Virus record (IMG/VR): IMGVR_UViG_3300037424_001372 | Location: 64,001 to 128,000 of that record | DNA: 64,000 nt | Source: a virus | Lineage: Duplodnaviria > Heunggongvirae > Uroviricota > Caudoviricetes | Reading direction: 5' to 3' (one strand) | Part shown: piece by piece, positions 9,381 to 51,745 of the stretch | Numbering within the stretch: position 1 is the stretch's first letter | Layout of the letters: the number at the start of each line of letters is the position of its first letter | Position numbers and translations under genes: made by a program | The notes under the pieces: generated by a model | The model's database searches: none | What the model was told of the DNA's origin: nothing | The model's input: the letters and a program-made list of their open reading frames with translations, nothing else

Positions 9381-11930
9381 TTACTCATCTTTCCAATTAT
9401 GGTCATATATCAATTCTAAACGACTTCTTGTTATCGCAACATATTCTAAATTTTTTTCTTGGGCAAATTGCCAAGGTTTAGGTGTTTGCATAGGTAATAA
9501 ATCAGGTCTGATTATAAATACTCTATCAGCTTCCAATCCCTTAACCTTATGAACAGTACTCAAAACAATTCCTTGAATCTCATCAGTAAAAATAGAATTA
9601 ATTTTAAATTTCAAATCAACAATACTATTAGATAATCTTGCTAAAAATAATAATGTATTTACTTTATCTTCAAGAATAGCATAACCACTATGGTCATTAG
9701 GATTTAAAATACCGTCTTTTTTTAAACTATTGCGATATTGCAACAATTCATCGTTCCAAAAACTAACTAAATTCTCAACACTATTTATTTTTCCAATTAG
9801 TTCAATTAAATGCACTCCAATATCACTACCTTTAATTATGGCTTTTTTTCTTTGAACTAAAAATTCGAAGAAAAGTTTTACCAATGGCATGGTTGTTCGA
9901 CAAATAACAAAGTCACCACTTTGTGCTTCATCAACAACACTACCTTCTCGAACACATCCTTCAGGAGCATCTGGTAATGCTTTGATGTCGGGTACTATTT
10001 CCTGTGCTTTACGAATAACTGCTTTGGAGCATCTGAAAGAAGTGGTTAATGGTAATACTTTTGTATTTTCAAATTTTTCAAACCATTGAAAAGATTTATC
10101 ATCAACGGCATTGAAACCGTAAATACTTTGTGTTTCATCTCCGAAAGAAAATAATCTACCCTCAAGTTTTTTCGTAGTTCTATTACGTTTTAAAACCTTT
10201 TCAATAATTTTTATTTGACATCTATTAATATCCTGACAATTATGGGTAATAATGCCATAATTTTCAGCATTTCCTTTAAACATTGATGTCGATGTAGTTA
10301 TAAAATTATGATTATCTTCAACTGTCATATCATATGTTTTCTCTTTTTTATGAAATGTGTGTTCTTTAGTAACAACCATACAACCTATTTCATGAGTATT
10401 TATTTTCCAATAATCATTATTATAATAACCCCTATCCTCTAAACATAATTTATAATCCATTGATGGATGAATATATTCTCTCAATAAAAATGAGAGTTTA
10501 CGTGTGTTTTCTGCATTAAATTCTAACCAATAATATTTTTTATTTGAAGAAGAACTTTTGCCTGTACAAACTTTTGATTCAATATTCCAATTATTTTTTA
10601 TTTTATTTGAAAATTTAATTGAATTATCGTAACTTTTTGCAGTTGAATACAATCTGGAATAACTATTTCCTAAATTACCATCATCCATCCATGATATAGC
10701 CAATGATTGTAGTGATATGTTATCAATATAATCAATGGTATTATCCCAATAAAAAGTATTACTACAAAAAACAAATGCATTTTTATTTGAATATCCGTTA
10801 TTATAATTTTCATTTATTTCTTCATTAAAAAATTTTGCTTTCCATTGAATATATTCCTTCTGATTCTTACCGTGAATTACCCTTAATCTATATATAAAAT
10901 CTGAAATTTTATTAATATTACCATCACCTAATTTAGAACCAATAACTATGTTTTTTTGTGTATTATTTAATAATAAATGATATGGTTGTTCGTAATAATT
11001 AGATAAAACACAATCACCAATTATTAATTCATCTAATCGTTTCCAACCATTAGATGTTAAAAATTTATGATTAACTGTCGATTTTAATTTTCTTTTTCCG
11101 TTTAACATAACATAATATACATCTTTTTCACCAGTACACCAAACATCAAGAATTTTTTTATTTTCAAATATTTTCTTATTTTCATTATATGTAATAACAT
11201 TAGGTAATTTTCTTTTTTTCTCGTTCAAATTAAAAAGACTACCAATTTGTTTTTTACCATCAATAGTTGATATATATGTTTTATAAGGCAAACATTCATC
11301 GACAAACACATAATCCTGCGGAAAAAACCATATTGTATTATCTATTGCTGGTAAAAAAATCATATCAGTGTAATCATAAGTATTTCTATCAATAGTCATT
11401 GTATCTAATACTTTCAACACTCGTTTAATATCATTGGGTTTTGTTAACGGTATATCATATCTATCAGCAACAAATGGTATATAATCTGCTTTAGTGGTTA
11501 AAGTAAGTCTACATAAATTACAGAGTTTCTTAATATTATCTAAATATATTAAAACCTCTTCTTCAGATTTAAATTCATCATTTAACTTCCAAGATTTGGC
11601 TTTCTTTTGAATAATTTTATCTGACTTAAATTCATCAAAAACAATTTTATCACCATATTTTCGTTTAATCGCAGAATTACCTAAACCATATGTTGTGTAA
11701 CATCTAACATGTTCAGGTAATTTAGTTTCAAGTTCATCTTTAATATGTTTATTAAATGCTAAAAAAGTAATTGACTTATCCTTAGGTAATAATTTAACAC
11801 ATTCTACAGCAGTACTGGTTTTACCACTACCTGCTCGTGCTTTAATTAAAATATTTTCAGGTCTGTTTTTAGTAAATAAAAAAATTCTTTCTTGTTCAGC
11901 AGTTGGTTTAAAATTCATAATTTTACCCAA
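9381..11930 (-). CDS. UvrD/Rep SF1 helicase with an intein
   Basis: Walker A ARAGSGKT; Walker B VFVDE|CQD split by the intein; GD..QSIYGF, SFRC, STVHKVKGLE, YVAITRSR. Confidence 0.93.
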   Translation of the reverse strand: MGKIMNFKPTAEQERIFLFTKNRPENILIKARAGSGKTSTAVECVKLLPKDKSITFLAFNKHIKDELETKLPEHVRCYTTYGLGNSAIKRKYGDKIVFDEFKSDKIIQKKAKSWKLNDEFKSEEEVLIYLDNIKKLCNLCRLTLTTKADYIPFVADRYDIPLTKPNDIKRVLKVLDTMTIDRNTYDYTDMIFLPAIDNTIWFFPQDYVFVDECLPYKTYISTIDGKKQIGSLFNLNEKKRKLPNVITYNENKKIFENKKILDVWCTGEKDVYYVMLNGKRKLKSTVNHKFLTSNGWKRLDELIIGDCVLSNYYEQPYHLLLNNTQKNIVIGSKLGDGNINKISDFIYRLRVIHGKNQKEYIQWKAKFFNEEINENYNNGYSNKNAFVFCSNTFYWDNTIDYIDNISLQSLAISWMDDGNLGNSYSRLYSTAKSYDNSIKFSNKIKNNWNIESKVCTGKSSSSNKKYYWLEFNAENTRKLSFLLREYIHPSMDYKLCLEDRGYYNNDYWKINTHEIGCMVVTKEHTFHKKEKTYDMTVEDNHNFITTSTSMFKGNAENYGIITHNCQDINRCQIKIIEKVLKRNRTTKKLEGRLFSFGDETQSIYGFNAVDDKSFQWFEKFENTKVLPLTTSFRCSKAVIRKAQEIVPDIKALPDAPEGCVREGSVVDEAQSGDFVICRTTMPLVKLFFEFLVQRKKAIIKGSDIGVHLIELIGKINSVENLVSFWNDELLQYRNSLKKDGILNPNDHSGYAILEDKVNTLLFLARLSNSIVDLKFKINSIFTDEIQGIVLSTVHKVKGLEADRVFIIRPDLLPMQTPKPWQFAQEKNLEYVAITRSRLELIYDHNWKDE
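10239..11294 (-). mobile_element. 352-aa intein with a LAGLIDADG homing endonuclease
   Basis: Starts CLPYKT, block B T.NHKF, LAGLIDADG-like IGSKLGDG and ISWMDDG, block F TYDMTVEDNHNF, ends THN before +1 Cys. Confidence 0.92.
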
Positions 11931-13609: not shown

Positions 13610-13648
13610 AAATTCGAGATGATTAAATTATAATATCATCTCGAATTT
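13610..13648. terminator. 14-bp perfect inverted repeat between convergent genes
   Basis: AAATTCGAGATGAT-11 nt-ATCATCTCGAATTT. Confidence 0.5.
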
Positions 13649-15298
13649 CATATTCCCACAATCATATACACAATGATAACCCCTTTCCATCATAATTTGA
13701 TGTTCTGTTTTATTTTTATCAAATCCTTGCTCAACCAAAACATTCTTTCTAAATTTAAATCTATGATAACGAATCAACGTATTTTTTATAAAATACCAAT
13801 AATTGATATCTGAATTACCAATGAACTTAAATCCTAATTTTAAATATAAACCACCATTACTGTAACGTCTATCTGCATATGTTAAAATAGATTTGGGTTG
13901 GTATGTTTTAACGAAATAACTAAGTAATTTACTTGCACCGCCTATTACTGTTGTGTTAAGTTTATTACAAAACCTCAGCATTTCATATTCACCATCAATA
14001 CTTATTTTATTGCCCATTGCTAATCTTTTTTTACCAAATGTCATGATTGATACTAATTCATCATCATAATATAAACCTAATTTAATTTTACCTCCTATAA
14101 ATCCTTGTATATGATTATTATTTAAAAAATTACGAATTGAATTATTATTGTTAATTTCTTTAATTTCACATTTTCTAGCAAATATTTTATTTTCAATAAT
14201 TCCTAGTTTGGATTTTATTATTGATTTAACAATATCTCTTTTATTTGCCCATTCATCTTCAAAAATATGTAGCAATTGAATACCTCGTTTTTTGCATAAA
14301 TTAGTTTTATTTAAATGAAAATCTATATTTTTAAATTTTGTTGAATGATAATAAATTCCATTAAATTCAATACCTATTTTATGCTCAGGTAAATAAATAT
14401 CTATTTCACATTTATCAATTTTTATTTTTGATGCGTTAAGGTTTAATTCATTTATTATAAAATCAAGCACCTCAAGTTCATTTATTGATGATTGTTGTGA
14501 TATTGGATAACATTCCGTACATAAATTAGTATTACTTCTTAATCTCGAAAAATAATTATTTTTTATTATTGTAAATGTTTTATGATATTTACAATAATTG
14601 CTTATTATCAATTCATTATCATGAATATTAACATCACAGTTATTTAAGTTTAAAGTATTTGAAACATTTTCAATCATTTTAATTTTAGCATTTAATTTTA
14701 TTTTATTCTTAATTGAATTAATATGATTTTTATCATATGATAAATGTTCAACACCATATTTTATTACATTAGTTTTCTTTATTTTCTCTTTAATGACTTC
14801 AGATTTAAATACATTATCAACACCATATTTATTGAATGTCGTTTTTTTTTGCTTATCTCTAATTTTCTGTACCTTCATTGGGTTATCAACACCATAATTA
14901 TTCCTACACGTTATTTCTATTTTTCTTCTAATGTCTTTTTTTTTCGATATGTGTTCATCTGAATAATATGTGATTTTTTTCTTATTTAACGTTGATTCAG
15001 ATTTATTACTACATGTAGATGAACAAAATGTCGAAAACCCCCTATTAACACTACCCAAAAATGTACAATTTTTACCACAAATAGGACATTTAGGTATTTC
15101 GTTTATATTATTAAGATATAGAAGAATTTTCTCTTTGAATAAACAACTATTTGCAGAATTATTTATTATTTTCTCATATAGTTTCGGAAGATGTTTACTC
15201 AACCATTTCTCTGTTGACTTATATCCAGACACGTTATCTGTGGTAAACCATATCTTTAATTCTTCCTCAGTGTAATTATTAACATCATTCTCAATCAT
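13628..15298 (-). CDS. Hef-like endonuclease/Mom-like GNAT fusion with 3 KYGV repeats
   Basis: PKCPICG..FCS..C, three YGV repeats, EIDIYLP..GIEFNGIYYH..HIFEDEW, HIQG, EMLRFC, GGASKLL, YADRRYS, YDCG. Confidence 0.75.
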   Translation of the reverse strand: MIENDVNNYTEEELKIWFTTDNVSGYKSTEKWLSKHLPKLYEKIINNSANSCLFKEKILLYLNNINEIPKCPICGKNCTFLGSVNRGFSTFCSSTCSNKSESTLNKKKITYYSDEHISKKKDIRRKIEITCRNNYGVDNPMKVQKIRDKQKKTTFNKYGVDNVFKSEVIKEKIKKTNVIKYGVEHLSYDKNHINSIKNKIKLNAKIKMIENVSNTLNLNNCDVNIHDNELIISNYCKYHKTFTIIKNNYFSRLRSNTNLCTECYPISQQSSINELEVLDFIINELNLNASKIKIDKCEIDIYLPEHKIGIEFNGIYYHSTKFKNIDFHLNKTNLCKKRGIQLLHIFEDEWANKRDIVKSIIKSKLGIIENKIFARKCEIKEINNNNSIRNFLNNNHIQGFIGGKIKLGLYYDDELVSIMTFGKKRLAMGNKISIDGEYEMLRFCNKLNTTVIGGASKLLSYFVKTYQPKSILTYADRRYSNGGLYLKLGFKFIGNSDINYWYFIKNTLIRYHRFKFRKNVLVEQGFDKNKTEHQIMMERGYHCVYDCGNMKFEMIL

Positions 15299-16385: not shown

Positions 16386-17216
16386 TTAGATTGCAATTTC
16401 CAATGTTTTGCTTAATTTTTGAATACCTTCAATATTTTTTATTTCAAAATCATCAATAGTATATTCATAAAAGTTTTTCATTTCTTTTAAAACTAATATT
16501 GGTTGTTCTTCTAATGGTTCACGTTTTAATAATTCATCGACAGAATCAAAATGTTTATCATATATATGTAAGTTTTGTGTCAAATGACAAAATTTACCAA
16601 TATTATATCCTAAATGACCAGCAATCATCATTTGCAATGCAACATATTGAATTTTATTAATGTAACCAGCCATAATATAATCATTACTTCTCTGTATAAG
16701 TGTTAAATCTAAATAAAAAATATTATTAACTTTTCTAACTGACCAAATAGTTTCATAAGCACATGGGTCTAAACCAATTGTAGAATTAATATCTTCATAT
16801 TGATACATGTTTATAATGTGTCTACGCGCAAATGGATTATATTCTAAAGAATATAAAAGTTTATTAATTAAATCATGTTTCTTAACTGTTGCACCATATC
16901 TTTGTCCAATAGTCCCATCACCAACATTCCATTCATCCCACCAATTAATACCTAATTTGTGTGCATCTGATAAAATATTAGATTGTTTCTGATAAATCCA
17001 AAACATTTCTTTAATTCCAGTTTTTATTGCAGTATTTCTTAAAGTAGTTATTGGAAATTCCCCTTTAGATAAATCATATTCTTCAAATATTTGAGTAATA
17101 AATTTACTATGTGCTGGTTGACCATCTTTCCATTTTGGTCTTGGGTTTTCATCCCACTGTCCATCATTTAAAATTTTATTTAAATTTTGAATGTAATAAT
17201 TATCTGCTTTTATCAT
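16386..17216 (-). CDS. thyA: Thymidylate synthase
   Basis: FPITTLR, IG.RYG, catalytic LDPC, QRSND, N..QY, NLHIYDKH. Confidence 0.95.
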   Translation of the reverse strand: MIKADNYYIQNLNKILNDGQWDENPRPKWKDGQPAHSKFITQIFEEYDLSKGEFPITTLRNTAIKTGIKEMFWIYQKQSNILSDAHKLGINWWDEWNVGDGTIGQRYGATVKKHDLINKLLYSLEYNPFARRHIINMYQYEDINSTIGLDPCAYETIWSVRKVNNIFYLDLTLIQRSNDYIMAGYINKIQYVALQMMIAGHLGYNIGKFCHLTQNLHIYDKHFDSVDELLKREPLEEQPILVLKEMKNFYEYTIDDFEIKNIEGIQKLSKTLEIAI

Positions 17217-18195
17217 AATAAAATTGATTAAATTTTTTTATATTATTAGTTAAATCTTCAATTAATATAGATGAATGTCTTGATTTTCTTATATTATCAC
17301 TCCATAATATTAATTCTAAATTAGATGGATGTGAAATTATATCAACCTCAATATTATTAATAAATCCTTCAAACACACTGAATTTATGGTCAAGTTGATA
17401 TCCATCATTACCATTTGTAACTCTTTTTAAATTTTCTGGATTAATAAATTCATTATATTTAAGATAGTTTTTTCTGGTTAAATTTCTCACACTCTTACTA
17501 TATTTTTTAAAATCACTTAAAAATTCATCTGGAATAATCAATCCTCTTAAAATTTTAGTATTCCTTTGTTTTTTCACATTTTCTTCATTATTAATTAAAA
17601 AGGAATTGGTTACACCATATTTTGTTTCAATAATGGTTTTTATTTTATGAATTATTTCGGAAGATTTAAATGGATTATCAACGCCATAATTAATTAGCCA
17701 AGTTTTCTTTGCTTTATTTTTTATTTCTTCAGAATGAAATGAATGAAATACACCAAAATTTTGAAACATTTTTTCCTTAACCTTATCATTAAGTGATTTT
17801 ACTTGAAATGTATATCCCCCGTATTTAATATTAAATGTTTCGGTTCTTTTTTTAATTCTAATTTTCTTTTCATCATCACTTAAATTCAAATAACATTCTC
17901 TAAATTTATTTTTAGTTTCGTCCGAATTGTTATTACATTTATGGGAACAATATTTATTTTGAATATTTAACATATTTTTACCACATTGTGCACATTTATT
18001 AATACTATATTTATTATATAGTATATAATTTATTCTTACACTCAACGAAGGATTCATTTCATTTAAAAATGATGTTTCTTTTTGAATTTCAAAAATAAAA
18101 TTCTCGTTCAAATGTGACATTTTTTTTGATGAAATAAGTGGTTTACTATTTCGTATAAAACAAACTTCATTAATTATTTTTTCTTTTATATTCAT
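17200..18195 (-). CDS. HNH-type free-standing endonuclease with 4 KYGV repeats
   Basis: CAQCG..YCS..C, YGV repeats, C-terminal YQLDHKFS..GF...HPSNLE.....N.RK. Confidence 0.7.
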   Translation of the reverse strand: MNIKEKIINEVCFIRNSKPLISSKKMSHLNENFIFEIQKETSFLNEMNPSLSVRINYILYNKYSINKCAQCGKNMLNIQNKYCSHKCNNNSDETKNKFRECYLNLSDDEKKIRIKKRTETFNIKYGGYTFQVKSLNDKVKEKMFQNFGVFHSFHSEEIKNKAKKTWLINYGVDNPFKSSEIIHKIKTIIETKYGVTNSFLINNEENVKKQRNTKILRGLIIPDEFLSDFKKYSKSVRNLTRKNYLKYNEFINPENLKRVTNGNDGYQLDHKFSVFEGFINNIEVDIISHPSNLELILWSDNIRKSRHSSILIEDLTNNIKKFNQFYYDKSR

Positions 18196-26375: not shown

Positions 26376-28370
26376 TTAATATAGTTTTAATGAAAATTTT
26401 ATCGTTCCACAGTTATAGATTTTATAAATATTATGTTCGATTAATATTTCGTCAATAGTTTTATTATCATCATACCAACCCAATTCAATAATTCTTTTTT
26501 TTCTAAAATTAAATCTATGATATCTCTGTTTTTGATTGTTAGCAATATAATAATATGATGGTTTGTTAACATGAACTTCGTTAAAACCAATTTGTTTGTA
26601 TAAATTACCTTGACTAAATCTTAAATCTGCATATGTTATAATTTCATGTGGGTTGTATGTTTTAATAAAATATTTTAATAATTTACTCGCACCACCAATA
26701 ACATGTGTATTAATTTTATTACAAAATCTTGATAAATTAAAAAATTTATCAGAATTTTTAGCATTACCCAATCCTTTTCTTGCCGTATCAAAACACATAA
26801 TTGAAACTAAATCATTATTATAATATAAACCAATTGAAATTTCAGAAGGAACTGCTCCTTGGACATGATTTAACATTAAGAAATCACTTGTAGTCGATTT
26901 ATCAATTTCTTTTATGACTGTGTTTCTACCATAAATATTATTTTCAATAATATTTAGTTTTGACTTAATTATTGACTTTATTATTTCTTTTTTATAAATC
27001 CATTCATCTTCATAAACATGTAATAATTGAATACCTTTATTATTACATAAATTTGTTTTATTCAGATGATAATTTTTATCTTTAAATAATTCAGAATGCC
27101 AATAAAGACCATTAAATTCAATAGCTAATTTATATTCTGGAAGATAAAAATCTAATTCTTGTTTGTTATCTAAAATAGATTTATCATTATTAACCAATTT
27201 AATATTTAATGACATTAAAAATGATTTTAATTCTAATTCAATTATTGATTTATTTTCAGAAACGGGATTACATTTAGTACAAATATTTTCATGTTTATTC
27301 CAAATTAATCTACTATATAACAATGATTTGGAAATATTAAAATTATCATGTTTTTTACAATAATTATTAATAGTTACATAATCCCCAATAATATCAATAT
27401 CATTTTGATTTACATTTAATAAATTAGAATATTTTTTTATAAAATTTAAAATATTGGTTTTTTTAATTTTTAATATTATTTCAGGTGATTTTGAAATATT
27501 ATCGACACCATATTTTTTTATTGTTGTTTCTTTTGATTTTATTCTATTATTAAAATTTTCATCACCATATTTTTCTAATTTTATTTTTTTTACACTTTCT
27601 TTAATAACATCGCTCTTCATTGGGTTGTCGACACCATATTCTTTTATTAATGTTCTATTTTTTTTTAAACTAAATTCATTAGAATTAAAATAATGTTCAA
27701 CATCATACTTTTCTTTAACAGTCTTTCTGATTTTGTTTTTAATCTCATCAGATTTATTAGGATTGTCGACGCCATATTTTTTTAAATTAGTATTTTTGAC
27801 TATTTCTTTAATAACTTCACTCTTCATTGGATTGTCGACACCATATTTTTTTAAAAGAGTTTCTTTTTTTTTGTTTTTAACTTCATCTAATTGATTATGA
27901 CTTTCAACATTGTATTTCAATAAATTAGTTTGTCTTGTTTTTTCTTTAATAGTTGTAAGTTTTTGAGGGTGCTCAATACCATATCGTCTAATATTGGTTA
28001 ATTTAATTTTTTCTTTTATTTCATTAGATTGTAAAGCATATTTTACCCCATTTTTTATTATTGAAGTTTGTTCTCTTTTTCCTTGAACAGTTTTATCTAA
28101 ACCAAGACATTTCATTGAACAATATGACGAATAACCTTCACTAAATTTTTTAAATCGAACATCATTTTCACAAATAATACATTTGGGTGGATTAATCATG
28201 TCATGAGTAATTAAATATAACATTTCTGAAAATGAAATGTTGTTATCTAAAAACGTTTTAATTATCTCGTTATATAAATTAGTATAATATTTTTGAAAAT
28301 ATTCTTTTGTCATTCTTTTTCTATTGATTTTACCTTCAACAAAAATAATACTATAAATCTTTTCTTTCAT
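26376..28370 (-). CDS. Hef-like endonuclease/Mom-like GNAT fusion with about 9 KYGV repeats; start revised to MKEKIYS
   Basis: PKCIIC..YCS..C, 23-aa repeats, ELDFYLP..AIEFNGLYWH..HVYEDEW, HVQG, LSRFC, GGASKLL, YADLRFS, YNCG. Promoter motifs at 28390-28404. Confidence 0.78.
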   Translation of the reverse strand: MKEKIYSIIFVEGKINRKRMTKEYFQKYYTNLYNEIIKTFLDNNISFSEMLYLITHDMINPPKCIICENDVRFKKFSEGYSSYCSMKCLGLDKTVQGKREQTSIIKNGVKYALQSNEIKEKIKLTNIRRYGIEHPQKLTTIKEKTRQTNLLKYNVESHNQLDEVKNKKKETLLKKYGVDNPMKSEVIKEIVKNTNLKKYGVDNPNKSDEIKNKIRKTVKEKYDVEHYFNSNEFSLKKNRTLIKEYGVDNPMKSDVIKESVKKIKLEKYGDENFNNRIKSKETTIKKYGVDNISKSPEIILKIKKTNILNFIKKYSNLLNVNQNDIDIIGDYVTINNYCKKHDNFNISKSLLYSRLIWNKHENICTKCNPVSENKSIIELELKSFLMSLNIKLVNNDKSILDNKQELDFYLPEYKLAIEFNGLYWHSELFKDKNYHLNKTNLCNNKGIQLLHVYEDEWIYKKEIIKSIIKSKLNIIENNIYGRNTVIKEIDKSTTSDFLMLNHVQGAVPSEISIGLYYNNDLVSIMCFDTARKGLGNAKNSDKFFNLSRFCNKINTHVIGGASKLLKYFIKTYNPHEIITYADLRFSQGNLYKQIGFNEVHVNKPSYYYIANNQKQRYHRFNFRKKRIIELGWYDDNKTIDEILIEHNIYKIYNCGTIKFSLKLY
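27455..28065 (-). repeat. Array of about nine 23-aa T-x-x-x-KYGV-x-x repeats (69-nt period)
   Basis: For example TLLKKYGVDNPMKSEVIKEIVKN / TNLKKYGVDNPNKSDEIKNKIRK / TLIKEYGVDNPMKSDVIKESVKK. Boundaries approximate. Confidence 0.85.
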
Positions 28371-31431: not shown

Positions 31432-32973
31432 CTATAATATTAATTCATATTTAAAATTACCACAATCATAAATTCTAGGTATTTTTCTATCTAACATTAT
31501 TTCATGTTCGGATTTATTTAAATCAAAGCCCTCTTGAATTAAGTTACTTTTTCTAAAATTAAATCGATGTTTACGTTGTTTATTTATTACATAAAAATAA
31601 TTTGGTGGTGTAATCTTTGTTTGTTTAAAATTTAATTTTTCATATAAATTACCGTTTGAATATCTTCTATTCGCATATGTAATAATTTTATTTGGTTTAT
31701 TTTTTTTTATAAAAAAATCTAATAATTTAGATGCTCCTCCAATAACAGAAGTATTTAACTTATTACAAAATCTCAATAATTCATAATCATTTAAATTTGA
31801 TTTTGAGCCTAAAATATTTCTTAAATTACCGAAAGTCATTATCGAAACTAATTCATTATTATATAATAATCCAATATTATATTTACCATTAACATTTCCT
31901 TGAATATGATTTTTTTCTAAAAAATCTTTGGTAGTAATATTATCGATATAAGTGATTTCACATTTTCGGGCAAATATTTTAATTTTTGTTAAATTTAATT
32001 TATTTAATATTATGGATTCAACAATATTAAATTTTTCAATAATTTCGTCTTCAAAAAATTGTAATAAATCATAATTAATGTCATTACATTTATTTAGTTT
32101 ATTTATATGATAATGTTTATCAACATAATATTCTGAATGCCAATGTAATCCATTAATTTCAATTCCAATATTTTTTTCAGGAATTAAAATATCGATTTCA
32201 AGATTTTTTAACAGTTTTCTATCATTAGCAATATAATTCACATTATTAATATTAAGAAAATTACCTATTTTTAATTCTAATGTTGATTTGGGTGCAGAAA
32301 CCGGTAATAATATTGTCGATAATTCAACATTATGATTTAAACGATTAACTAATAACTTTCTATGATTTTCAAAAATATGTCCATCTGGATGTTGAATTTT
32401 AATATTATCATTATTAAAGTCAATTATTTTATAATTGATTTCTGCAAACCTTTGTATTAGATTTAAATTTCTTTTATTAATTATTGTTGCACGTGCTTTT
32501 TTTATTGAATCATGATTATTGTGTTTTATTTTATTTTGAATCGATTTTAATTTAAACAATGAATCAACACCATATTTTAACATCAAAGATTCTTTGCTTT
32601 TTTGTATTCTATTATTTTTATTTTCAATATTATTATTCCAAATATTCCTACATAAAATTGAACAAAATTTTTTATCGTATTTTATCCTTTCTTTAAATTC
32701 ATTTCCACATATTAAACAAATTCTATTCTCAGTACTATTAACATGTTTAGCCTCTCCAGAACATTTATATGAACAATATTTTTTATTTTCTTTTATTTTA
32801 GATTTAAACAATTTACTACAATTTTGACATTCTTTCATTTCAAAGAAAATTTCGTCTTTTTTTAATCTAAATTGTTTTTTACATTCATTAGAACAAGTTT
32901 TTTTTTCTTTTCCTTTTCTAACTTCAAAAGATTTGCCACAATTTTCACATATCATATTTACAATAACTGCCAT
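31432..32973 (-). CDS. Hef-like endonuclease/Mom-like GNAT fusion with three CxxC...CSxxC zinc modules
   Basis: CENC/CQNC/CLIC modules, one KYGV unit, EIDILIP..GIEINGLHWH..FFEDE, HIQG, ELLRFC, GGASKLL, YANRRYS, YDCG. Confidence 0.75.
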   Translation of the reverse strand: MAVIVNMICENCGKSFEVRKGKEKKTCSNECKKQFRLKKDEIFFEMKECQNCSKLFKSKIKENKKYCSYKCSGEAKHVNSTENRICLICGNEFKERIKYDKKFCSILCRNIWNNNIENKNNRIQKSKESLMLKYGVDSLFKLKSIQNKIKHNNHDSIKKARATIINKRNLNLIQRFAEINYKIIDFNNDNIKIQHPDGHIFENHRKLLVNRLNHNVELSTILLPVSAPKSTLELKIGNFLNINNVNYIANDRKLLKNLEIDILIPEKNIGIEINGLHWHSEYYVDKHYHINKLNKCNDINYDLLQFFEDEIIEKFNIVESIILNKLNLTKIKIFARKCEITYIDNITTKDFLEKNHIQGNVNGKYNIGLLYNNELVSIMTFGNLRNILGSKSNLNDYELLRFCNKLNTSVIGGASKLLDFFIKKNKPNKIITYANRRYSNGNLYEKLNFKQTKITPPNYFYVINKQRKHRFNFRKSNLIQEGFDLNKSEHEIMLDRKIPRIYDCGNFKYELIL

Positions 32974-49861: not shown

Positions 49862-51745
49862 ATGAAAAAAGAATGTATTGAAATTTTAGAAAAAAAAATA
49901 TATTTTGAAAAATATATAAAAAAAACTTATCCATTATTATATGATGAAATAATAAAATTTAATTCTAAATTAGATATTTCATGGTTAAATAAATTATATA
50001 ATTACATATTTAATATTAAAATTCATCCTAAATGTGAATATTGTAATACACAATTAAATTTTAGAAATAAAATTAGTATTGGATATGGTCAATATTGCTC
50101 AAAAAAATGTACTTCTTTAGCTACAAGAGATAAGGTAATAAATACTAATTTAGAAAAATATGGTGTTGAATATCCTTTACAAAATAAGGAAATTTATCAA
50201 AAATTAATTAATACTAATTTAGAAAAATATGGTGTTATTTCAACACTATTAGATGAAAAGGTTCAAGAAAAAATTAAACAAACTAATTTAGTTAGACATG
50301 GCGTTGAAAATCCGTCTCAATCAGATTTAATAAAATATAAACGCAAACAAACTAATTTAAAAAAATATGGTGTTGAGAATGTTTTTTGTGTAAATATTAT
50401 AAAAAATAAAATTAAAGAATGTAATGAAAATAAATCCCATTTTGAAAAAGAGTTTATTAAAGAAAAAACTAAAAAAACTAATTTAAAAAAATATGGGGTG
50501 TCAACAGTTCTTATTTTAGAAGAAAATAGAAAAAAAATGATTAATTATAATATTAATCATTTAGGTGTTAAATATCCTTTACAAAATGAAGAAATTAGAA
50601 ATAAATCAAAAAAAACTATTTTGAATAAATATGGCACCATTAGTATTAGTAGTTCCAATTATTATAAGGAATGTATTAATACTAATTTAATTAAAAAATA
50701 TTCATTATTACTTAATTTAAATAATAATAATATTAAATATAATAATAATATTTTTATTATTAAAAATTATTGTGAATTACATAAAAAATTTCATATAAAA
50801 TATGATGATTTATATAATAGAATATTTCTTGGTTGTAATAACATTTGTACCAAATGCAACCCAATATCTAAACAATCTAAAATAAAGGAAAACGAAATCA
50901 ATGATTATATCAAATCATTGAATGTTAAATACATAAGAAACGATAGGAAAATTCTATCCCGTAAAGAGCTAGATTTTTATCTCCCAGATAATAAATTGGC
51001 AATTGAATTCAACGGTTTATATTGGCATTCGAATAAATATAATTCAAATAATTATCATTTGGATAAAACCAATTCTTGTGAAGAGCAAAACATACAATTA
51101 TTACATGTGTTTGAGGATGAGTGGGTTTATAAAAAAGAAATTGTTAAAAGCATTATTAAATCTAAGTTGGGAATAATTGAAAATAAAATATTTGCAAGAA
51201 AAACAGAAATAAAAGAAATAACTGATAATAATTTAACTAAAGAATTTCTTGAAAATAACCACTTACAAGGTTCTATCAATTCTTCAATTAAGTTAGGATT
51301 ATTCCATAATAATCAATTAGTTAGTCTTATGACTTTTGGAAAAAAACGGGTTGCTTTAGGCAATAAAACACAAAATATTGGTGAATATGAGATGTTAAGG
51401 TTCTGCAATAAACTTAATACTCAGGTAGTTGGAGGTGCTAGTAAATTATTAAAATATTTCACAAACAATTACCGACCCAAAGAAATATTAACTTTTGCAG
51501 ATAGGAGATATAGTAATGGTAATCTATATAAAGAACTAGGATTTAATTACTTAGGAAATACCAAACCTAATTATTGGTATTTTAAAAAGAACGAATTGGT
51601 AAGATATCATAGATTTAATTTCAGAAAAGATATTTTGGTTAAAGAAGGTTTTGATTCAAATAAAACCGAACATCAAATAATGGAAGAAAAGGGATATTTG
51701 AGAATATACGATTCGGGGAATATGAAATTTAAAATAAAATGTTGA
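49862..51745 (+). CDS. Hef-like endonuclease/Mom-like GNAT fusion with about 7 KYGV repeats
   Basis: PKCEYC..YCSKKC, TNLEKYGV repeats, ELDFYLP..AIEFNGLYWH..HVFEDEW, HLQG, EMLRFC, GGASKLL, FADRRYS, YDSG. Confidence 0.78.
   Translation: MKKECIEILEKKIYFEKYIKKTYPLLYDEIIKFNSKLDISWLNKLYNYIFNIKIHPKCEYCNTQLNFRNKISIGYGQYCSKKCTSLATRDKVINTNLEKYGVEYPLQNKEIYQKLINTNLEKYGVISTLLDEKVQEKIKQTNLVRHGVENPSQSDLIKYKRKQTNLKKYGVENVFCVNIIKNKIKECNENKSHFEKEFIKEKTKKTNLKKYGVSTVLILEENRKKMINYNINHLGVKYPLQNEEIRNKSKKTILNKYGTISISSSNYYKECINTNLIKKYSLLLNLNNNNIKYNNNIFIIKNYCELHKKFHIKYDDLYNRIFLGCNNICTKCNPISKQSKIKENEINDYIKSLNVKYIRNDRKILSRKELDFYLPDNKLAIEFNGLYWHSNKYNSNNYHLDKTNSCEEQNIQLLHVFEDEWVYKKEIVKSIIKSKLGIIENKIFARKTEIKEITDNNLTKEFLENNHLQGSINSSIKLGLFHNNQLVSLMTFGKKRVALGNKTQNIGEYEMLRFCNKLNTQVVGGASKLLKYFTNNYRPKEILTFADRRYSNGNLYKELGFNYLGNTKPNYWYFKKNELVRYHRFNFRKDILVKEGFDSNKTEHQIMEEKGYLRIYDSGNMKFKIKC
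50141..50640 (+). repeat. 23-aa KYGV repeat array
   Basis: AATACTAATTTAGAAAAATATGGTGTT occurs exactly at 50141 and 50210 (69 nt apart), with further diverged copies. Confidence 0.85.

Follow-up and report, generated by a model that had tools for sequence, protein, structure and literature searches.

What an array of short protein repeats contributes to the nuclease that carries it is the question raised by a 64,000-nucleotide (nt) stretch of viral DNA (hereafter the window), in which five genes, A to E, encode from one to nine copies of a 23-residue unit with the motif K-Y-G-V. The window comprises bases 64001-128000 of the virus record IMGVR_UViG_3300037424_001372, which totals 324,744 bp and has a G+C content of approximately 25%. 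The tail sheath and other structural genes of this phage show a distant likeness to T4, and the source is thus an uncultured jumbo myophage. Amid structural genes, the window contains five Hef-like selfish nuclease genes and one intein. The five genes add new members to DUF7487, a catalogued family whose function is unexplained, inside a known class of selfish nucleases. The array is probably a modular, NUMOD-like DNA-holding ribbon that serves as the targeting region of these Hef-like endonucleases.

A Tandem Repeat of the DUF7487 Family

The five genes are located at 26376..28370 (gene A; minus strand, 664 amino acids [aa], ATG at 28370), 49862..51745 (gene B; plus strand, 627 aa), 17200..18195 (gene C; minus strand, 331 aa), 13628..15298 (gene D; minus strand, 556 aa), and 31432..32973 (gene E; minus strand, 513 aa). 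In the translations of these open reading frames (ORFs), the K-Y-G-V motif recurs every 23 residues. A hidden Markov model (HMM) built from the window's own units, which we used for counting, recovers individual units with E-values of 1e-7 to 1e-12. The repeat also corresponds to Pfam PF24308 (DUF7487, "family of unknown function"), which matches genes A to D with E-values of 8e-35 to 5e-10; the scores (121 bits for A, 102 for B, 47 for D, and 40 for C) all exceed the gathering score of 27 bits. The single unit of gene E was picked up by our own HMM only (18.5 bits, E = 6e-7). The translations, the unit HMM, and Pfam thus bear out the 23-residue unit reported in the initial annotation of this DNA, and the residues after Y-G-V vary as listed there (DN, EH, ES, EY, EN, IS, ST, and KY). 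The unit was not found in any other gene of the 324,744-bp genome by our own HMM or by a six-frame profile search.

In gene A, the array (27456..28064, minus strand; aa 103-305) consists of nine DUF7487 units with a strict 23-residue period, and is modeled by AlphaFold2 (AF2) with a predicted local distance difference test (pLDDT) score of about 90. The eighth of these units (27492-27548, minus strand; region aa 275-293) is shortened to 19 aa. The array of gene B (50147..50686, plus strand; aa 96-275) has seven clear units and additional degenerate ones, one of which is without Y-G; a 19-residue degenerate unit is found in this gene too (aa 188-206). Three units are present in gene D (14702..14908, minus strand; aa 131-199) and one in gene E (32518..32586, minus strand; aa 130-152). 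These numbers agree with those proposed earlier, but gene C (17563..17838, minus strand; aa 120-211), for which four units had been counted, has three clear units and one degenerate unit.

At the DNA level, the tandem signal is weak (69-nt period, 72% matches, 2.2 copies). The initial annotation had described a 27-nt exact duplication and taken it as a sign of recent expansion. An exact-repeat search recovered two such copies 69 nt apart, but these lie in gene B (50141-50167 and 50210-50236, plus strand) rather than in the gene A array at 27455-28065, where they had been placed and where the longest exact repeat is 19 nt. The word covers the conserved N-T-N-L-E-K-Y-G-V codons, and the two units that hold it are identical at 44 of 69 nt. 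Given these features, together with the low G+C content and a strong codon bias, the word is poor evidence of recent duplication and does not show a recent expansion. Recent unit duplication was rejected on the basis of the best pairs, namely, units 4 and 7 of gene A (56/69 nt) and the gene B pair. Recent exchange of units between the five genes was rejected also, as their common words are only 12-20 nt long and located at the conserved motif.

Beyond this genome, a full HMMER scan with the array found 16,862 representatives (50% identity clusters) at E-values of 1e-3 or better, and 8,766 DUF7487 representatives were found at 1e-10 or better. The unit period is rigid in the family (850 of approximately 990 successive spacings are exactly 23), and the copy number ranges from 1 to 19 units per protein. 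The family consensus is N-L-E-K-Y-G-V-E-N-P-s-Q-S-E-E-I-K-E-K-I-K-Q-T, with the highest conservation at G6 (98%), Y5 (90%), K/R4 (90%), K19 (86%), V7 (82%), and T23 (81%). Structural neighbors among predicted viral proteins were found in Klosneuvirus, Marseillevirus, an iridovirus, and many phages. A DUF7487 match above the cut-off was also found in the control genome of Corynebacterium glutamicum, and the repeat is therefore not confined to viruses, although this copy may lie in a prophage. The same species is listed as holding a bacterial member of the EDxHD family (PMC3239194). Literature searches retrieved no paper for "DUF7487" and unrelated peptides only for "KYGV," and a language-model search gave no usable look-alikes outside DUF7487. 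Few unexplained parts of homing endonucleases in phages and giant viruses are as common as DUF7487.

Carrier Genes and Their Domains

To judge from their sequences, the array carriers are free-standing Hef-like homing endonucleases. Genes A, B, D, and E match phrog_3339 "homing endonuclease" with E-values of 1e-101 to 1e-145, the best being that of gene A, which is further supported by its tblastn relatives. These four genes have a common architecture, namely, one or more Cys4 knuckles, the array, a second CxxH...CxxC knuckle, a Vsr-like nuclease, and a C-terminal domain of approximately 150 residues. For genes B and D, the assignment of the same architecture as gene A is based on Pfam, phrog, and translation, and for gene E on phrog, translation, and our own HMM. 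The initial annotation had placed the array between a zinc knuckle and a nuclease in every case. A putative Cys4-type knuckle is indeed found upstream of the array in all five genes, and a Vsr-like nuclease downstream in A, B, D, and E, but gene C has instead an HNH-like motif recognized by eye and weak structural leads.

In gene A, the putative Cys4 zinc-ribbon-like knuckle read from the translation (C64, C67, C84, and C88; 28107..28181, minus strand) lies in a region that has short strands in the AF2 model, and the fold matches to MYND, zf-HIT, and TRASH were weak (E = 1.3 or worse). The second knuckle (C338, H341, C364, and C367; 27270..27359, minus strand), also read from the translation, is located between the array and the nuclease. 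It is present in genes B and D as well, and a family search with it gave no match. The Vsr-like (EDxHD-type) nuclease (aa ~374-470; 26961..27251, minus strand) was identified by similarity to PDB 3r3p, the catalytic domain of I-Bth0305I (E = 5e-4). In this alignment D406, N419, and H424 correspond to D196, N208, and H213 of I-Bth0305I, the D222 position aligns with a His that is conserved in the proteins of the window, and the counterpart of E170 was not placed. The Pfam Vsr profile gave 22 bits with gene A, against a cut-off of 27.

The C-terminal domain of gene A (aa ~485-630; 26481..26918, minus strand), for which no direct Pfam match was found, is classified as Mom/GNAT-like by a transitive link. 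Residues 378-660 are 40% identical to P0020 (E = 7e-52), in which the aligned stretch scores above the cut-off with both Pfam Mom (38.2 bits) and GNAT (Acetyltransf_1; 23.3 bits). The domain recurs in genes B, D, and E. Among 256 long-array relatives, 214 have a Vsr-like domain, and 130 of these relatives, about half, have a Mom-like domain beside the nuclease as well. Other partner domains in the family include MTES_1575 or DUF559 nucleases, TnsA-N, PvuRts1I-N, helix-turn-helix (HTH), and N6/N4 DNA methylase. In support of the initial annotation, the array lies in the targeting half of homing endonucleases, and its fusions to other DNA enzymes include a DNA methylase, a TnsA-like nuclease, and restriction-type nucleases.

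Genes C and E depart from this architecture. In gene E, three tandem CxxC...CxxxC knuckles (aa 9-109; 32647..32949, minus strand; read from the translation, with Pfam DUF2116 "probable treble clef" at E = 0.009) precede one unit, the Vsr-like nuclease, and the Mom-like domain. The E-like genes in L033, L058, and L060 likewise keep exactly one unit. The combination of three knuckles with a single unit suggests that knuckles and units may be alternative modules. Gene C (DUF7487, E = 5.5e-10) consists of a zinc knuckle, the array, and an HNH-like C-terminal domain. The HNH-like reading comes from a D-H...N...N pattern recognized by eye and from ESM Atlas leads, and searches of Pfam and of PDB sequences did not confirm it. 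In a structure comparison with the ESM Atlas, the look-alikes of this domain include clusters with NUMOD3 and HNH. The occurrence of a look-alike domain beside NUMOD3 gives a lead, from models, that DUF7487 and NUMOD3 might be interchangeable partners.

The 3' end of gene C shares 17 nt with the beginning of a gene of the thymidylate synthase family (16386-17216, minus strand; Pfam E = 5e-61), such that this endonuclease gene is directly upstream of a conserved nucleotide-metabolism gene. The seg and mob genes of T4 often have a position of this kind.

Distribution Among Related Phages

To compare gene content at the same sites, we surveyed 65 contigs of related phages with sheath proteins that are 53-91% identical. 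The junction between the sheath gene and an 821-aa upstream gene (baseplate side) is empty in 38 contigs, with a median gap of 266 bp, and holds a repeat-bearing endonuclease gene in two contigs and in L002, in which the contig does not include the upstream gene. Between the sheath gene and the next gene, the junction is empty in 59 contigs and filled in three. Repeat-bearing genes are therefore present at approximately 5% of the same junctions in related phages, and this patchy occupancy indicates that they behave as free-standing homing endonuclease genes (HEGs).

The HEGs found at one junction have nine (gene A), nine (L009), seven (L053), and seven (L002) units, which suggests that units were gained and lost over time among enzymes of the same site. 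The 19-aa short unit is kept as a landmark in the same-junction relatives L009 (aa 287-305, the eighth unit as in gene A) and L053 (aa 207-225), with the loop pattern Y-G-x-E-N-[FY]-N-N.

A tblastn search found relatives in 425 phage records. These include F-LimVIII of LIMEstone1 and ORF039 of RaK2, both annotated as homing endonucleases; the former was published as a Hef-like free-standing endonuclease (PMC3296691). With six units in F-LimVIII and nine in ORF039, the repeat thus belongs regularly to Hef-like enzymes, those of cultured phages included. Like genes A and E, KYGV-bearing Hef-like genes adjoin tail sheath/tail tube genes in LIMEstone1 (L074, 103128-104918) and RaK2 (L075, 19700-21703). 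Sheath-gene neighborhoods may be a recurrent target.

Predicted Structure and Co-variation

We modeled residues 55-320 of gene A with 26 aligned relatives (pLDDT 87.7; predicted template modeling [pTM] score 0.48) and a 108-residue four-loop fragment with 150 aligned windows (pLDDT 94.1). According to DSSP, these AF2 models have one long helix per unit. The predicted unit has a 15-residue helix that begins at position 14 and ends at Y5 of the following unit, a loop (G6-V7-E8-N9), and then a one-turn 3-10 helix (P10-Q12), with S13 placed as a cap. The helix-loop repeat suggested in the initial annotation is therefore consistent with the models, which predict helix, loop, and 3-10 turn in each unit at pLDDT 88-94.

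No close counterpart was found among solved structures. The best Foldseek E-values against PDB were 0.95 for the 266-residue model and 5.7 for the 108-residue model, and VIA-align against 48,161 chains gave best Z-scores of 3.8 and 3.6, well under the value of 14 that chance commonly gives for helical models. When PDB was searched by sequence and by profile, the only matches were the nuclease domain (3r3p) and chance zinc-finger hits.

A co-variation analysis of 1,961 unique pairs of adjacent units gave the strongest couplings for 8-12, 10-16, 13-16, 11-20, 14-17, and K21 with E8 of the next unit, and units i and i+2 have only same-position, lineage-type signals. This pattern suggests that each loop is packed against two helices, namely, the beginning of its own and the end of the one before. 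In such a model, a small corner core (L2, Y5, V7, residue 11, I16, I20, and the K21-E8' pair) would join successive helices, and the array would form a chain of rigid corners, that is, an extended ribbon and not a stacked solenoid of the TPR type. An extended ribbon fits the low pTM and the absence of PDB neighbors.

A Probable DNA-Holding Ribbon and Its Alternatives

In the favored mechanism, the zinc ribbon and the array would bind duplex DNA lengthwise beside the cut site and hold the Vsr-like nuclease there. The contacts of the array would be many, weak, and mostly to the backbone. K/R4, K19, and T/S23 are highly conserved without a co-varying partner and are candidate contact residues, perhaps to phosphates. 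The core specificity would come from the Vsr-like nuclease, which probably dimerizes like that of I-Bth0305I, and the unit number would tune footprint length and affinity. Such a role would have its parallel in the NUMOD modules of I-TevI and I-Bth0305I. We infer the DNA binding, its geometry, and this division of labor with the nuclease. The DNA-holding reading is supported by the constant association of the array with DNA-acting domains and by its net positive charge. The units had been described as basic; this holds for the window (+1 to +4 per unit) and is weaker in the family at large (+1.2 per unit).

Several observations weigh against a DNA-holding ribbon. The family consensus unit has equal numbers of acidic and basic residues, and the K/E pairs 14-17 and 18-21 co-vary as intra-helix salt bridges, which suggests that part of the unit charge is structural. 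No solved DNA-binding fold matches the array (best VIA Z-scores of 3.6-3.8, far below helical noise), and gene E, with one unit only, cannot form an array. If a DNA-holding ribbon is nevertheless correct, it would explain how Hef-like enzymes find long sites and would place a new repeat fold on the short list of DNA-tracking repeats.

Co-varying K/E pairs are numerous, as in stable single helices, and the predicted ribbon is rigid, extended, and regular. Both features are compatible with a spacer, ruler, or scaffold that keeps its units off the DNA and sets the distance between zinc ribbon and nuclease, or that mediates dimerization or another protein contact. Zinc knuckles lie on either side of the array and partly take its place in gene E, and a distance-setting element has a precedent in the linker of I-TevI (PMC10448857). 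However, a spacer would have no need to keep K/R4, K19, T/S23, Y5, and G6 at 86-98% over thousands of diverged units, nor to conserve its loops in a unit-specific manner, and its length would be expected to be constrained at one site, where we found nine, nine, seven, and seven units. A spacer, ruler, or scaffold role is therefore unlikely. An array that binds another ligand, such as single-stranded DNA, RNA, or hypermodified phage DNA (e.g., in telling self from target DNA), would suit a family that has no assigned function and no neighbor among solved structures. The genome encodes thymidylate-synthase-family and glycosyltransferase genes, and many carriers have a domain like Mom, which represents a family of DNA-modifying enzymes. 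The partner domains are nonetheless duplex-DNA nucleases and a DNA methylase, and such a ligand appears very unlikely.

The initial annotation had proposed a code similar to that of transcription activator-like effectors (TALEs). In such a code, each unit would read a fixed small number of bp, the loop residue or residues would set the base preference, and the nuclease would be directed to new targets when units are gained, lost, or exchanged. The strict 23-residue period and the variable copy number (1-19 in the family, and different at the same junction) are in line with this reading, yet neither recent duplication nor swapping was seen between the five genes, which share no more than the short words at the conserved motif. 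The premise of a conserved scaffold with few variable reading residues was not supported. The units of one array differ at approximately 55% of all positions, not at one or two. The 2,683 units examined hold 508 different triplets at positions 9-11 and 1,244 different pentamers at positions 8-12, which is not a small residue alphabet; at position 8, E or D accounts for 83% of units. Moreover, loop positions 8, 10, 11, 12, and 13 co-vary with helix positions 12, 16, 20, and 21 and thus look like packing residues. What favors the loops as readers is that positions 9-11 are the most variable among units of one array (mismatch 0.69-0.82) and yet are conserved in matching units. In 59 independent pairs of related arrays, the ratio of matched-unit to within-array mismatch is 0.62 for loop positions 9-11 but 0.84 for the helix surface (positions 14, 15, 18, and 22; Wilcoxon p = 3e-7), which indicates that the loops carry a unit-specific constraint. 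Either packing idiosyncrasy or ligand contact could explain this constraint. Position 9 is mainly N (34%), Y (24%), H (18%), S, or C and has no long-range co-variation partner, although N9-P10 may be read as an ordinary helix cap too. In the relative I-Bth0305I, specificity resides mostly in the nuclease domain (PMC3239194). Taken together, a code of this kind is quite unlikely. In its fullest form, DUF7487 arrays would be pre-formed helical ribbons of a new class that follow a groove of the DNA with a few bp per unit, in which the exposed position 9 (perhaps with its neighbors) biases base preference and arrays of 1-19 units provide phage and giant-virus nucleases with a re-arrangeable DNA-addressing system. 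This is a rather improbable proposal but, if coded, the array would have practical interest for DNA targeting.

Other Selfish Elements in the Genome

A UvrD-like helicase gene in the window (9381-11930, minus strand) is split by an intein bearing a LAGLIDADG endonuclease (Pfam Intein_splicing, E = 4e-15; LAGLIDADG_2, E = 3e-9), which represents the sixth selfish endonuclease of the window. Outside the window, a NUMOD3 match above the cut-off (21.1 bits) was found in a 270-aa ORF (G000:C1:35025-35099, minus strand). At least one endonuclease-type gene of this phage therefore contains the classical module.

Comparison with Known Systems

The closest known systems are the Hef-like/EDxHD enzymes, and phage homing endonucleases of the "Hef type" were assigned to the EDxHD family with I-Bth0305I (PMC3239194). 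Like the carriers described here, I-Bth0305I (PDB 3r3p), U5 Hef, and F-LimVIII have an N-terminal DNA-targeting region followed by a C-terminal nuclease. Hef-like/EDxHD enzymes also share the Vsr-like nuclease with aligned D, N, and H, and their genes are likewise free-standing, patchy in distribution, and located beside conserved structural genes. I-Bth0305I differs in having two NUMOD2 helix-turn-helix motifs in place of the KYGV repeat and in being without a Mom-like domain, and a counterpart of its D222 is not clearly conserved in the proteins of the window. The footprint of I-Bth0305I is approximately 60 bp, with contacts outside the central 14 bp that are largely non-specific; specificity comes mainly from the nuclease dimer, with long and tolerant contacts contributed by the N-terminal modules (PMC3239194).

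The NUMOD modules (the zinc finger, minor-groove helix, and HTH of I-TevI; NUMOD3) are similar to the array in being short modules beside a nuclease, often with a zinc finger, that serve long and tolerant sites. In contrast, NUMODs are single or few, and not 9-19 strictly periodic units with their own packing core. The NUMOD3 profile (PF07460) gave no match to the arrays up to E = 10, and its matches in this genome are at two places outside the arrays; kinship of the array with NUMOD3 was therefore rejected at the level of profile matches.

In geometry, the STPR domain of silkworm FMBP-1 (PDB 5d23) offers a parallel, with the same 23-residue period, one helix per unit, and a zig-zag of helices. 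STPR follows the major groove, each unit covering 4 bp, with a shape-based preference for AT-rich DNA (PMC4856987). The structural match of the DNA-bound STPR domain to the long array model is weak (VIA Z = 3.6, root-mean-square deviation 5.1 Å over 56 residues) and was not listed with the four-unit model. No sequence similarity was detected between STPR and the array, and a profile search of PDB sequences gave no STPR match. STPR also differs in that it has a 21-residue helix with a 2-residue linker, is without a hydrophobic corner core, and folds only on DNA. The likeness is thus best regarded as an analogy and not as kinship.

TALE units are 34 residues long, contain two helices, and are near-identical except for two hypervariable residues. 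TALE repeats resemble the KYGV arrays as tandem helical units of variable number that are attached to a nuclease (in TALEs, when engineered), but KYGV units differ from each other at approximately 55% of positions and have no small alphabet. The idea of repeated DNA-binding modules has a further parallel in the CapR-like zinc-finger modules of T5orf172 HEGs, although these are independently folded "beads on a string" and not a continuous helical repeat (PMC10448857). For these zinc fingers, the idea of a fast change of target through recombination between repeated DNA-binding modules has already been published (PMC10448857).

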